Source of the DNA: a virus
Taxonomy: Duplodnaviria; Heunggongvirae; Uroviricota; Caudoviricetes
Strand: one strand, 5' to 3'
DNA length: 20,390 bases
Virus record (IMG/VR): IMGVR_UViG_2579778982_000025
Coordinates: 1 to 20,390 of that record
Positions 3,701 through 14,123 of the stretch are shown here, piece by piece. A model generated the notes under the pieces. That model was given only the letters and a program-made list of their open reading frames with translations. It was not told the origin of the DNA and did no database searches. Numbering within the stretch: the first letter of the stretch is position 1; each line of letters opens with the position of its first letter. The position numbers were made by a program, and so were the translations under genes.

Positions 3701-4765
3701 TTACACCTGTGCGACGTTATACCATGTGCCATTGATGTATTTTTGTATTGGCCTGAAGATGGCTTCATCATCGCCATCTACTTCACCAATGATTCTTAAT
3801 CCGGTAATTGCGTGTCCGGCTTTTTCATAACGACCACCACGCGCCATCAATTGAACAACACGTGTGCCAAGTCGGACATCTCTCACATAGCGTGAGTCAA
3901 AATTGCCATAATTGTCGGGAATAACTTGCGCACCACAAAGCCAGTTACCGTTATTATCCATGTACGCCTGACCATCGGTGCCATTGGCTGTCCTTGAGTT
4001 ATTAATCATGTAGATGCCAAATTGCTTGTTCCCCAGTCCACCTATCATGAACTTTCGGTCGGCGTGATTCTGGCGAAGTAACGCCTGAGCGCTATCAGTG
4101 TTAACTATATTTTTCCCAAAGATAGCGTTGTTATCGCGCATCTGAATCCACATACCATTACTGCTGTTAATAGCAAAACGGTCTGAAAGTGTCTCCCCTG
4201 AAACATTAAGACCACGCCCCATCGAAACAGCGCCAGTAGCGTTATTAATCCATAATGGCCTTAATCCGTTATAAGTCCCCATGTTGTCACCGGAGTTTGT
4301 CAACATGAAGTATGTATCTGAACCATCATTACGAATAAAGAATCCGTAATTACCATAAGCAATACGTAGGCCGTTTGCTGATTTTGATATGACTTCGCCA
4401 TTTACAATGGCATTGACAAGAACATACAAAGCATCCCATTTAAGATTCATCAGGTCTTTTGTTGTGGTACTTTGTTTGCTTCTCCATTTGAAATATTCAT
4501 TGCCGTTGTCGCCTGTCTCAAACCACATGTATGAATCAGTGTCACCATCGGCATCATTTTTAAATCCAATCTTCGCCCAGTCAGTATTTCGAATCCAAGC
4601 AAGGATTGAGTCATTTTCAAAAGTAAGCCCACCGGACAAGGTATCGCCATTCTTTTGCACGGCGTTACCAACCCTGTTTACCGTTTCCTGCAAACCGAGG
4701 TTTTTGAGAATTGCCTCTGTGTCGTCTGGACGATATTTTTTTCCGCTTTTAGCAACAATCGCGGT
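3701..4765 (-). CDS. tail fibre protein, alternative variable C-terminal module, fused to a 24-codon remnant of a constant region
   Basis: Minus-strand frame is open from the stop at 4766-4768 down to 3701. Passes through the right crossover site with the same NLGLQETVN codons as the left module. Only 24 codons (TAIVAKSGKKYRPDDTEAILKNLG) lie outside the site. C-terminus ...IQKYINGTWYNVAQV. The ORF-track start at 4693 is a TTG inside the crossover site. Confidence 0.7.
   Translation of the reverse strand, partial: TAIVAKSGKKYRPDDTEAILKNLGLQETVNRVGNAVQKNGDTLSGGLTFENDSILAWIRNTDWAKIGFKNDADGDTDSYMWFETGDNGNEYFKWRSKQSTTTKDLMNLKWDALYVLVNAIVNGEVISKSANGLRIAYGNYGFFIRNDGSDTYFMLTNSGDNMGTYNGLRPLWINNATGAVSMGRGLNVSGETLSDRFAINSSNGMWIQMRDNNAIFGKNIVNTDSAQALLRQNHADRKFMIGGLGNKQFGIYMINNSRTANGTDGQAYMDNNGNWLCGAQVIPDNYGNFDSRYVRDVRLGTRVVQLMARGGRYEKAGHAITGLRIIGEVDGDDEAIFRPIQKYINGTWYNVAQV
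4685..4710. repeat. right inversion crossover site (inverted partner of 1635-1660)
   Basis: Plus strand ttcctgcaaaccgaggtttttgagaa; reverse complement aligns to the left site with 3 mismatches. Confidence 0.8.
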
Positions 4766-4774
4766 TTAGAAAGT

Positions 4775-5329
4775 ATGCAATATGGTTATGCGAGGGTGTC
4801 AACTTTTGACCAGAATTTGGAATTACAACTGGAGGCGCTCAGGAGTTCAGGATGTGACCGGATTTTTGAAGATAAAATATCCGGTGCTAAATCAAAACGA
4901 CCAGGACTTGATAAGCTACTGAAGGTGTTACGTCCGGGCGATACGGTTATTGTCTGGAAGCTGGACCGAATGGGGCGTTCTCTGATTCATCTTGTTGATT
5001 TACTTAACCATTTTTTATCAAACAACATTGAGTTTATTTCGATTACGGAAGGGATAAAAATTAGCACTTCAATTGGCCGCTTTGCCTACACGATGCTGAG
5101 TGCAGTCGCAGAGATGGAGCGGGAAAATATGATTGAAAGAACGCGTGCAGGATTGGCGGTGGCAAGGGCTAACGGCAGGATAGGAGGACGCCGCTCAAAG
5201 CTGGCACCAGAGCAATGGGAACAGATCGGAAGGCTTATTGCGAATGGTGTTTCACGTAAGCGGATAGCGATTATCTTCGATGTTACCTTATCCACGCTTT
5301 ACCGCAGGTTTCCGGCTGGGAATCATTGA
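4775..5329 (+). CDS. serine recombinase (invertase/resolvase family), invertase 2
   Basis: MQYGYARVSTFDQNLELQLEAL...VIVWKLDRMGRS...AVAEMERENMIERT...GGRRSKL...STLYRRFPAG, 184 aa. ATG at 4775; the ORF-track 4655 start is an unsupported N-terminal extension. Candidate promoter TTGCCT (4711-4716) - N17 - TATTTT abuts the right crossover site. Clearly divergent in sequence from invertase 1. Confidence 0.8.
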   Translation: MQYGYARVSTFDQNLELQLEALRSSGCDRIFEDKISGAKSKRPGLDKLLKVLRPGDTVIVWKLDRMGRSLIHLVDLLNHFLSNNIEFISITEGIKISTSIGRFAYTMLSAVAEMERENMIERTRAGLAVARANGRIGGRRSKLAPEQWEQIGRLIANGVSRKRIAIIFDVTLSTLYRRFPAGNH

Positions 5330-5460
5330 CTGGAGTTAGGCCAGTAGTATGATGCTCGCAAAACGAGATCCAATTTAGATCCTTTTACTGGTGGATTATC
5401 GTTCGATCAGTGAGAGACTTCGTGCATGACCGAAAGTGTTGTGGTAGAGTTCTCTTAAAA

Positions 5461-5473
5461 CCACGTAACGTGG
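5461..5473. promoter_or_regulatory. operator-like palindrome CCACG-TAA-CGTGG upstream of the repA control region
   Basis: Perfect 5-3-5 inverted repeat with the same CCAC(A/G)-N3-(C/T)GTGG architecture as the sites clustered in the cI/cro intergenic region; next to a TATGAT -10-like hexamer at 5475-5480. Confidence 0.4.
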
Positions 5474-5511
5474 TTATGATTGTGGGTGTCTGGTTGGAAA
5501 CTGACCAGATA

Positions 5512-5630
5512 TGGAAACAAAAAGCCCGCAGATAAATCTGCGGGCTTCTTGCGACATCCACGGAAAACCAACAACAACAATCCATGGGCGCCTCGACAAC
5601 TCCCATTATACGTTGGTTTTCCGTGGACGC
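5512..5630 (-). ncRNA. candidate CopA-like antisense RNA of the repA leader (IncFII-type copy-number control)
   Basis: Two hairpins in the repA leader. A long stem-loop has a 15-bp stem ccacggaaaaccaac (5558-5572) / gttggttttccgtgg (5612-5626) and a ~39-nt loop. On the minus strand it is followed by aagcccgcaga-ttta-tctgcgggctt (5522-5547) and then a T-run (complement of 5509-5520), a rho-independent terminator oriented for minus-strand transcription. The RNA ends are not mapped. Confidence 0.45.
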
Positions 5631-5642
5631 AAGAGCGAACAT

Positions 5643-6491
5643 ATGGATAGACCAATGCCGTCTCTACGTTCCGCTTACGTTTGTAATTTGTCGCCGGAGT
5701 TCCAGCCTCCAAAGCACCATACGCACAAGCTGCCGCTGGTGTTATCTGATGCTTTACAGCGCATTAATGGGCGTGATCTTACGTGTGAGGTTGCGTTCTA
5801 CGTTAATCAACCGTCAGAGCGGAAGCGCCGGATAAACGAGCATCGTCGTCGGGCGATTAATGCTGTGATCGCTGCGATTTTGCACCATGTAAACATCATT
5901 TCTAAGCGGGTTCTGGCTAGTGCTGAGGCGTTGGCTGATTTTTGCGGCCTGTCTACCGTATCCGAAGCTGGGAACAAGTCTATAACGCGCTGTACAAGGG
6001 CGTTGTCGCAACTGAAAGCGTTAGGGTTTATTGATTATGAACGTCGCTGGGATCGGGTGAATAAACAGTATTGGCCAGCGAAAATAGAGATTCGTGATCA
6101 ACTGCTGGAAACCGTTGGTATTACTGAACAAGCATGGAGACGTGCGGTTAGCCAGAAACTTAATTACTTCAATGCGAAGAATAGCGAACGGCTTAAAAAA
6201 GCGATAACGGAGGCTGATTATAAGCGTATTGTTATTCAGGAGCAGATGGAGAATGTATGGCGTCAGAGGAAGACGGCCAGAGAGATAAAGGCAAAACAGA
6301 AAGCAGCGGAGAGAGCTGCGCGTCTTGTTCGGGAAAAGGGAGAGGCCGAACTTCGTCATCAAATCACTAGAGAGGTTAGCCAGGAATTTGCTGATGGCAT
6401 GTATCCTGGAGCTGACCTTGCATATTTACGATCCCTCGTTGAGCAGCGTTATAACAGGTTAAGAAAGACCTGGAAATCACTCCAACATTAA
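5643..6491 (+). CDS. repA: plasmid replication initiator RepA (IncFII RepA1-like)
   Basis: ...GNKSITRCTRALSQLKALGFIDYERRWD... resembles the R100/R1 RepA1 motif (..KLSITRATRALTFLSELGLITYQ..), with an Arg/Lys-rich C-terminal half. Preceded by antisense-RNA-like hairpins and followed by a DnaA box plus AT-rich region. Start at ATG 5643 (MDRPMPSLRS...) is preferred because the ORF-track start at 5511 lies inside the antisense terminator hairpin. An IncFII-type leader peptide may exist in another frame ending at 5648-5650, but I cannot place its start. Confidence 0.75.
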   Translation: MDRPMPSLRSAYVCNLSPEFQPPKHHTHKLPLVLSDALQRINGRDLTCEVAFYVNQPSERKRRINEHRRRAINAVIAAILHHVNIISKRVLASAEALADFCGLSTVSEAGNKSITRCTRALSQLKALGFIDYERRWDRVNKQYWPAKIEIRDQLLETVGITEQAWRRAVSQKLNYFNAKNSERLKKAITEADYKRIVIQEQMENVWRQRKTAREIKAKQKAAERAARLVREKGEAELRHQITREVSQEFADGMYPGADLAYLRSLVEQRYNRLRKTWKSLQH

Positions 6492-6599: not shown

Positions 6600-6740
6600 A
6601 AATATCGCCTTCACAGGCATCGGCTAATAAAGTTATCCACAGTTTTGATATGTATATGCAAATGGTTTTTTATAATAGATGCACTAAACAAATAAATGCA
6701 AAATCACTTTCTTTTATTAAGACTTTCTTTATTTAACTTA
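6600..6740. other. putative replication origin (DnaA box plus AT-rich unwinding region)
   Basis: Perfect DnaA box TTATCCACA at 6633-6641, ~140 bp downstream of repA, followed by ~100 bp of very AT-rich sequence (6642-6740). Matches the repA-then-oriR layout of IncFII replicons. Confidence 0.5.
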
Positions 6741-7134
6741 CGCAGGCTTTGCCTGTGAATATGTTCGCCCTTGCAGCGAGCTAAAGCTCGCGCCGGTTCG
6801 AGTCGCTACGCTCAAATATACCTCCTCCGGCACTTGCCGGAGGCATGGAGCAGCCTGATCATCCTTTTCGAAACGGCGCGTTTCGAACTATACAAAATCA
6901 ATTTATATAAGGCCGAAATGAGGCCTACGGCCGGGCTTTGCAGGAGGAAGGAGCGAGCCTTATCGATAAACGTCGATAAATACGCACACAGTAGCCATCA
7001 GAACGCGATAAAACGTAAGAAACATCATTTCCTATTAGACATAGAAAACTTGTCTTATACGCAATGTAGTAAATTTCTATTGCCACATAGGAAAAGATTT
7101 CCTACCATCGTAGATATAATAAATGGAGATGGTT

Positions 7135-12356: not shown

Positions 12357-12640
12357 TTTGCACCTCCCATAACTACTTTGGTTACGAGGGAGATTTTTGC
12401 GTCAGAAACAGCGTTATCGTTGCTGGCGATGCGCATAGCTTCGCGCTCGATGATTTCAGCCAGGCGGAATTTATCGGCGTATGAGGCTTTCTTGAGAAGG
12501 ATCTTTACGAGGTTGACGTAATAGTCATGGGGTAAGTTTGTCATGATGATAGTTCCAGTTTTGATATTGGAATAATCACCACCGCTGACGCCAATCAGTG
12601 AGGTGGTGAGACGTACAGGGTTGGCGTAACCGGTCATCAT
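12353..12640 (-). CDS. hypothetical protein
   Basis: Stop overlaps the start of the antirepressor-like gene in an ATGA arrangement, suggesting translational coupling. Start ambiguous between 12640 and an internal ATG (MTNLPHD...). Confidence 0.4.
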   Translation of the reverse strand: MMTGYANPVRLTTSLIGVSGGDYSNIKTGTIIMTNLPHDYYVNLVKILLKKASYADKFRLAEIIEREAMRIASNDNAVSDAKISLVTKVVMGGAK

Positions 12641-12844
12641 GATACCCGGCGAGCCTTACGGCTCCCCCGCACGCCCCACCATAATTCGGGTGTAGCTGTG
12701 CTTTACGCATAAAAAAACCGCTAACGCGGTATGCGCCATGATGATTATCGGGACGCCAATCCCGACCGTAGATTTTGCTACGGCTCGGAAAGTGTCCACC
12801 AATGGCGCATTTATGTCAATACAGCGGGATTTTAACAGACTAAA

Positions 12845-13739: not shown

Positions 13740-13971
13740 GTAGGTTACTGATTTTGTGAAAATAAACTGTTTTTTTCGTTTAATTTCTTTCCTATTACTA
13801 ATCTTAAAATAATCGTAAAATACCTGTGGACCTTCCCGCCGATTCGCACCCGGGCACCGACTTTAGGGGAGGATTTCCTGTTGCCGTACATGCAAGCACA
13901 AGCAGCCGTGCTTGCTCTCGCGTTGTTTTCGTCGGTGGGGATGTCGTGAAACGGCCTGTAAGGGCCACACA

Positions 13972-14094
13972 ATGAAAAAATACTACATGTGTATTTTTAT
14001 CGTTGTTACTGGAGCTTTGTTTACGCCACATGGGGAGGGTTGGAAGATTACTGATAACGCTCTGAATGTGACGATAAACATTAGCAGCAAGTAG
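13972..14094 (+). CDS. small hydrophobic peptide (40 aa), candidate small membrane protein or type I toxin
   Basis: MKKYYMCIFIVVTGALFTPHGEGWKITDNALNVTINISSK. RBS AGGG 7 nt upstream. Strong terminator immediately downstream. Confidence 0.4.
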   Translation: MKKYYMCIFIVVTGALFTPHGEGWKITDNALNVTINISSK

Positions 14095-14099
14095 CGATT

Positions 14100-14123
14100 A
14101 GGCCCCTTCGGGGGCCTTTTTTA
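14100..14123 (+). terminator. rho-independent terminator
   Basis: aggcccc-ttcg-ggggcct followed by tttttta. Confidence 0.7.

Follow-up and report, generated by a model that had tools for sequence, protein, structure and literature searches.

The locus raises the question of how the replication initiator gene repA is controlled, and whether an antisense RNA transcribed against its leader takes part. It was analysed within a window of 20,390 nt, the whole of the stretch taken from viral record IMGVR_UViG_2579778982_000025, and all positions refer to that stretch unless another locus is named. A preliminary description, prepared from the letters alone, had placed a CopA-like antisense RNA with two hairpins and a minus-strand terminator at 5512-5630. 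As far as the sequence can tell, the module most likely makes a small antisense RNA holding plasmid copy number down, and the full reading, copy-number control by a countertranscript of ~80 nt in an IncFII-RepA-type replicon of a P2-tailed phage-plasmid, is given a probability of roughly 0.55.

The window region was 99-100% identical to ~48-kb non-mobilizable E. coli plasmids, and three Yersinia phages of the vB_YpM series were also among the matches at this level; across the antisense module (5400-5720), identity to the plasmid of E. coli ATCC 25922 (NZ_CP009073) was complete. Genes for baseplate, tail fibre and DNA invertase are neighbours of the replicon, and the ~48-kb E. coli element was therefore classed as a phage-plasmid; its tail is P2-like. 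The replicon was present in 71 of 5,426 complete E. coli genomes (~1.3%), plasmid-borne every time and one per genome, and related elements were found in Salmonella, Klebsiella, Citrobacter and Yersinia phages. The record NZ_CP032086.1 from an ATCC 25922 assembly (94,204 bp, ~2x the usual size) carries the replicon twice, which probably reflects either dimerization or an error of assembly.

With RepA as query, homologues were recovered in two identity ranges, 81-85% and 58-63%. The contigs carrying RepA homologues, together with viral and metagenome contigs scanned for the motif, supplied 25 distinct versions of the module, which fall into two lineages: group A, window-like, and group B, whose RepA is ~60% identical to that of the window. 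A RepA-based scan of genome contigs returned no relative, and the motif scan of the same contigs gave chance matches only, in unrelated organisms.

The initiator gene itself (5643..6491, plus strand) encodes an IncFII-family RepA, whose length is 282 aa if translation starts at 5643 and 278 aa if it starts at 5655. The product matches PF02387 (E 1.3e-43), and its identity to classical IncFII RepA is just 31-41%, over part of the length. The overlap with a repA leader claimed in the preliminary description is thereby borne out. The translation-initiation region (5631..5657, plus strand) comprises a Shine-Dalgarno (SD) sequence AAGAG (5631-5635), an AUG at 5643-5645 and a second AUG at 5655-5657. 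RepA homologues are 277-284 aa long, align from AUG 5655 and start at this second AUG. The upstream AUG at 5643 is kept in position among relatives, and its frame relative to repA differs: it is in frame 0 in the window and in L014, in frame +1 in L009, L010 and L035, where it opens a 13-codon overlapping ORF, and in frame +2 in L003 and L004, where the ORF has 46 codons. The conserved upstream AUG is probably a regulated initiation site. Downstream, ~140 nt past the repA stop, a perfect DnaA box (TTATCCACA, 6633-6641) and then a stretch of 25-31% GC (6600-6750) were noted as oriR-like, with the limit that the DnaA box count alone is within chance (2 found against 0.79 expected). These origin-like features sit downstream of repA, as in the IncFII (R1-type) circuit.

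In related plasmids the RefSeq-style start of repA is placed at 5511 (326 aa), and the frame from 5511 into repA is open in the window, so that the region could be taken to code for an N-terminal extension of RepA. That reading is effectively refuted: indels of 1, 2 and 3 nt within 5567-5581 break the frame among replicons that are at least 97.7% identical, and because of them this segment is non-coding; the ATG at 5511 is missing from other group A types; the Pfam match begins only at residue 53 of the long form; and the homologues have the lengths given above. A conserved leader-peptide ORF ending at the repA start, as expected in the preliminary description, was not found in the window or its relatives. 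The candidates considered for it (the loop ATG at 5584, the ORF at 5480-5650 and the frame from 5511) were unconserved or broken by indels, the ORF at 5480-5650 being among the unconserved, and AUG 5643 lies in the varying frames given above. The IncFII/FIC replicon used as positive control carries an annotated tap leader peptide. Within 5330-5640 no other family-supported ORF was detected, and upstream of the leader there is no copB-type repressor gene, the upstream gene being a serine invertase (PF00239). In group B an ORF of 158-162 aa was observed between the module and repA (L007 1016-1504, L008 1016-1504, L012 112-588); it opens at the conserved ATGGA, overlaps the repA start (ATGA) and has weak matches to winged-helix domains. 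Its similarity to the N-terminal half of RepA (28% identity, E 6e-12) marks it as a truncated paralogue of that half.

Two hairpins lie in the leader, at distances of 16-125 nt before the first conserved AUG of repA (5643). For the larger, described earlier as a 15-bp stem with a large loop at 5558-5626, the inverted-repeat finder returned perfect 16-nt arms (5557-5572 and 5612-5627, 100% complementary) with 39 nt between them. In the plus-strand leader this long hairpin (5557..5627) is extended by a basal helix, CUUGCG (5548-5553) pairing with CGCAAG (5628-5633), and encloses an apical stem of 5 bp (5584-5588/5602-5606) with an invariant 13-nt loop, CGCCUCGACAACU (5589-5601). The smaller hairpin has arms at 5518-5533 and 5536-5551 (94% complementary, same program) and a GC core of 9 bp, GCCCGCAGA (5524-5532) with TCTGCGGGC (5537-5545), closed by a 4-nt loop. 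Past this core the minus strand reads UUUUUGUUU (complement of 5515-5523) and the plus strand UUCUUGCG; the U-run that follows the GC hairpin is thus on the minus strand only, in agreement with the T-run noted in the minus orientation in the preliminary description. The element was taken as an intrinsic terminator of a minus-strand transcript (5515..5551, minus strand). A simple terminator scanner did not list it, its 8-nt window past the extended stem holding 3-4 U against a cutoff of 5 U. The minus strand of 5505-5645 folds with -68.2 kcal/mol, compared with -38.1 +/- 3.5 kcal/mol for 200 dinucleotide shuffles (z = -8.6), none of which was as good.

Transcription of the leader is predicted, by promoter scan, from a sense promoter at 5326..5353 (plus strand, TTGACT-16-TATGAT), which ranked 4th of 203,550 sites under a rough position-weight matrix and whose layout is shared by group A and group B relatives. 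Paired GATC sites, GATCCAATTTAGATCC (5367-5385), were seen just downstream of it, with a similar GATC cluster in group B (L013); the cluster could reflect sensitivity of repA transcription to Dam methylation or SeqA. Between this promoter and the module the leader holds two further plus-strand hairpins just outside the antisense overlap, one at 5459-5475 (AACCACGT/ACGTGGTT) and one of ~12 bp at about 5486-5512. Their stems are retained among relatives and their loops and arms vary, loop position 5501 being tri-allelic (C/G/A) among near-identical replicons. On the plus strand no U-run comes after any of the leader hairpins, and attenuation in the sense direction was rejected as unlikely on this ground. 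A search by eye beside the SD in both lineages gave no convincing pseudoknot complement to the invariant apical loop.

On the minus strand, a predicted antisense promoter was located at 5605..5632, with -35 TTGCGT (5632-5627), a 16-nt spacer and -10 TATAAT (5610-5605); the spacer is the right arm of the long stem. This site ranked 7th of the 203,550 window sites and best on the minus strand by the same rough matrix, with a -35 hexamer that matches at 3 of 6 positions only, and it was not listed by a simple promoter scanner. In each of the 25 variants it scores highest among the minus-strand candidates, the group B version being TTGCAT-18-TATAAT; the hexamers are conserved (TTGC[G/A]T and TATAAT) and the spacer is wholly different between the lineages. 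It is also the only conserved minus-strand promoter, and it sits inside the loop of the large hairpin. The antisense RNA would therefore probably lack the 16-bp stem, in contrast to the RNA of the preliminary description, and the 16-bp stem is probably a feature of the sense leader.

From this promoter the start is predicted at ~5597 +/- 3, and the RNA would probably be ~80 nt long, running from ~5597 to ~5517 (5517..5598 on the minus strand, both ends taken from the promoter and terminator positions) as a short 5' tail, a first hairpin and the terminator hairpin. Its predicted fold has -41.1 kcal/mol (z -6.5 to -7.1). Hairpin 1 pairs GGCG.CCAUGGA (5592-5581) with UCCGUGG.UGUC (5564-5553) around a U-rich loop of 16 nt (5580-5565). 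Across the 15 group A variants 98.2% of its cells are paired and 2 pairs have changed on both sides; 3 of its pairs are G-U and would be C-A on the plus strand, and the terminator extension, too, contains G-U pairs that are minus-strand-specific.

Both hairpins are conserved in related replicons with compensatory changes, a point on which the preliminary description had made its reading depend. The two lineages have in common the order of the parts, the GC hairpin with its minus-strand U-run, the long stem, an apical stem of 4-5 bp, the invariant block GCCTCGACAACTCC[C/G]ATTATA, a conserved GCAAG(A)GCGAA and the ATGGA start. By direct reading of the sequences, the stems are wholly different between the lineages and complementarity is retained. 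Within group A alone, 97.4% of cells are paired and 4 pairs have changed on both sides, one pair occurring in three types (G-C, A-U and C-G); the arms of the long hairpin account for 3 pairs changed on both sides in this group. Between the lineages a pair in the apical stem is swapped from G-C to C-G, and the terminator hairpin has 4 pairs changed on both sides with 100% of cells paired. Since this terminator is conserved with compensatory changes in two lineages, a countertranscript is well supported, if indirectly.

All group B copies were retrieved by a covariance model built on group A, with scores of 37-49 bits (E 1e-6 to 1e-9); the model gave no match in CopA-type, IncB-type or Arsenophonus loci. 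A MAFFT alignment of both lineages placed the group B arms out of register and was discarded, and the model-based alignment was used. In it, 97.6% of cells are paired and 23 of 38 pairs have changed on both sides (14.0 +/- 1.6 in shuffles and 5-7 with slid partners); fitting the alignment to the model favours the structure, and the direct reading of the sequences agrees with it. The comparison thus indicates that the hairpin structures are real and under selection. The covariation is silent on which strand matters, because sense and antisense folds mirror each other. In the long stem G-U was counted 39 times and C-A twice, in an alignment fitted on the minus strand; the count is biased by that fit and was given no weight, and the independent events read by hand are ~2 against 1.

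Variation between close relatives is concentrated in one place. In a comparison of 13 near-identical replicons across 621 nt, the segment 5567-5581 takes up 12 of the 39 variable columns and every indel. It has at least 7 alleles and covers the top of the left arm and the 5' side of the internal loop; 5582-5671 is unchanged. The variable left side and invariant right side fit a division in which the right carries promoter and translation start and the left the transcribed specificity region. Under this model the hypervariable segment is likely to be a determinant of incompatibility specificity. No genome among the 5,426 complete E. coli genomes was found to hold two replicons with different alleles.

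The module was compared with the known control RNAs of related initiators. CopA (RF00042) gave no match in the window at gathering (60 bits), none at E<=10 in 5330-5760 and none in 10 related loci, and the genuine IncFII/FIC replicon run as positive control scored 99.9 bits. Of the IncFII countertranscript first proposed, then, the kind is upheld by the conserved minus-strand terminator in two lineages and the assignment to the CopA family falls. PK-repBA (RF01089) likewise had no match in the window at gathering (45 bits) nor at E<=10 in 5330-5760. UUGGCG and CGCCAA are absent from 5500-5660, the motif being present in the control alignment. The best permissive match, Thr_leader (RF00506; 31.3 bits on the minus strand, cutoff 55), was set aside as reflecting a generic hairpin and terminator only. 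The module constitutes an RNA family of its own that Rfam 15 does not list, and full-text literature searches returned no description of the replicon or its RNA.

With CopA/CopT of R1 and R100 it shares a cis-encoded countertranscript that overlies an IncFII-family repA leader, starts within this leader from a constitutive antisense promoter and ends at an intrinsic terminator (all predicted here), a size of ~80-90 nt with two hairpins, and a presumed role in negative copy-number control and as incompatibility determinant. It differs in that the CopA model matches it neither in sequence nor in structure. In CopA a long bulged 3' hairpin serves as both recognition element and terminator and bears a CGCCAA loop (target loop UUGGCG), whereas the window module has a separate short terminator hairpin and recognition is predicted in the loop of its 5' hairpin. 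Unlike the CopA circuit, it is without copB and without a conserved tap-like leader peptide, and its antisense promoter is nested in the loop of the long target hairpin. With the RNAI/Inc RNA and repBA/repZ pseudoknot systems (IncB, IncI-alpha, IncK and IncL/M; RF01089) it has antisense control of an IncFII-family initiator in common, but it lacks their UUGGCG target loop, the CGCC partner next to the start and a repY-like leader ORF.

IncB-type leaders with a UUGGCG loop were observed beside two RepA relatives, at L006 1369-1489 (RepA 63% identical to that of the window; PK-repBA 49.3 bits) and at L005 1355-1469 (RepA 37%; PK-repBA 56.7 bits). Related initiators thus carry differing leaders, and control regions have evidently been exchanged between them. 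RNAII of pMV158 and similar short countertranscripts contact their target through a single-stranded 5' region, carry a terminator hairpin behind it and inhibit initiator translation (PMC4485353). The predicted RNA resembles them in this layout and differs in that pMV158 is a rolling-circle replicon of unrelated host and sequence; the window module has a large-loop 5' hairpin and not a bare tail, and its target would be a long leader hairpin far upstream of the SD.

The mechanism proposed is as follows. The repA mRNA would be transcribed from the promoter at ~5326-5353, and its leader of ~290 nt would fold into the long hairpin (5548-5633). Within the loop of that hairpin, a constitutive minus-strand promoter (5632-5605) would give the countertranscript of ~80 nt, ending at the terminator (5545-5515). 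Such an RNA would be complementary to the left arm, to the hypervariable internal loop and to half of the apical loop, and not to the right arm. The U-rich 16-nt loop of its 5' hairpin would nucleate with the A-rich single-stranded leader loop at 5571-5581, and pairing would then spread into the left arm of the leader. The antisense loop is the complement of the hypervariable internal loop, so both partners are predicted to be single-stranded at the point of contact, and a contact of this kind is usual for nucleation and incompatibility specificity in CopA and in IncB/I/K systems. The outcome would be reduced translation of RepA; the dose of the RNA would rise with copy number and close a negative feedback, and cross-inhibition between related replicons would depend on their hypervariable segments. 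The sequences show the structures with their covariation, the consensus and conservation of promoter and terminator, and the separation from CopA; the production of the RNA, the position of its 5' end, its inhibitory action and the way in which pairing acts on translation are inferred.

For that last step a refolding is favoured: once released, the right arm would pair with 5640-5656 around the repA start. Cleavage of the duplex, or some further route, would be the alternative. When the left side was blocked in folding calculations, the right arm folded onto the start region in every group A type; in the window 5612-5626 paired with 5640-5656 and both AUGs were buried. Against shuffles, this helix was modestly better in group A (z -1.2 to -3.0) and no better in most group B types (z +0.6 to -1.8), and the start region was the best partner of the right arm within 400 nt in 3 of 5 group A types and not in group B. 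With the left side blocked, the start region showed no drop in mean accessibility. On these calculations the refolding switch is put forward tentatively, as a possible route to translation.

Three other accounts of the hairpins were weighed. A countertranscript of ~115 nt could start at about 5630, contain both the large 16-bp hairpin and the terminator hairpin, and kiss its target through apical loops in the manner of CopA and CopT. The very stable fold of the full minus strand (z -8.6), the covariation of long stem, apical stem and terminator alike, and the fact that the large hairpin can form equally well on the minus strand all suit it, and the apical loops, invariant over 13 nt, would lend themselves to kissing. 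What it lacks is a promoter: the weak site TAGAGA-17-TATGTT (5666-5638), which would start at ~5631 in the window, ranks 88th and was seen neither in the other group A types nor in group B, and no other conserved promoter lies upstream of the right arm. An invariant kissing loop common to two lineages would moreover cross-react, and the invariant TATAAT in the loop opposite the hypervariable side would be left unexplained. We consider this longer RNA unlikely, while noting that the invariance of the apical loop is not explained by the promoter alone under the ~80-nt reading.

That there is no regulatory antisense RNA at all, the hairpins acting in the sense leader as operator, stability or protein-binding element and the minus-strand signals being by-products, is regarded as improbable. 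All of the stems do form in the plus-strand leader too, and the basal helix pairs part of the SD (5628-5633). Such an account is hard to reconcile with a U-run that is confined to the minus strand in either lineage although their stem sequences differ, with a consensus -10 and a conserved -35 at ~80 nt from the terminator in 25 of 25 variants, and with the minus-strand-specific G-U pairs in hairpin 1 and the terminator extension. The 16-bp inverted repeat might also act as DNA, as an operator for RepA or another dimeric protein or as part of the origin. Its arms flank the predicted promoter, and IncFII-type replicons use protein repressors such as CopB. The arms change, however, via wobble-compatible intermediates, and group B has asymmetric internal loops of 3-7 nt in one arm only, which suits RNA better than a palindrome bound by protein; there is no repressor gene between the invertase gene and repA, and the origin-like features lie on the far side of repA. 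A DNA element is accordingly considered very improbable.

The ~80-nt countertranscript remains the preferred reading, and recognition of the module would have several consequences. It would correct repA gene models, the region being annotated as repA coding sequence in RefSeq, and provide a handle on copy number and incompatibility in a group of phage-plasmids whose carriers, through this replicon, include the widely used reference strain ATCC 25922. To CopA and the IncB/I pseudoknot type the module would add a third architecture by which antisense RNAs control IncFII-family initiators, and it points to swaps of control modules between initiators that are still ~60% identical. A further proposal, which combines a new family of control RNA with a promoter placed in the loop of its own target, a one-armed strand-displacement switch and hotspot-diversified incompatibility among co-circulating phage-plasmids, is advanced as speculative in this combined form.

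Other features of the element were recorded in the window. The serine DNA invertase gene (PF00239 + PF02796; 4775-5329) lies beside oppositely oriented tail-fibre genes (3701-4693, minus strand), and together they probably form an invertible host-range segment of the Cin/Gin/Hin type. Matches above Rfam gathering were obtained for C4 antisense RNA (12599-12686, minus strand, 81 bits), isrK (12711-12784, minus strand, 70.9 bits) and a ryfA-like RNA (13826-14122, plus strand, 144.7 bits), and immunity RNAs of P1/P7 type are therefore present in a phage-plasmid with P2-like tail genes.
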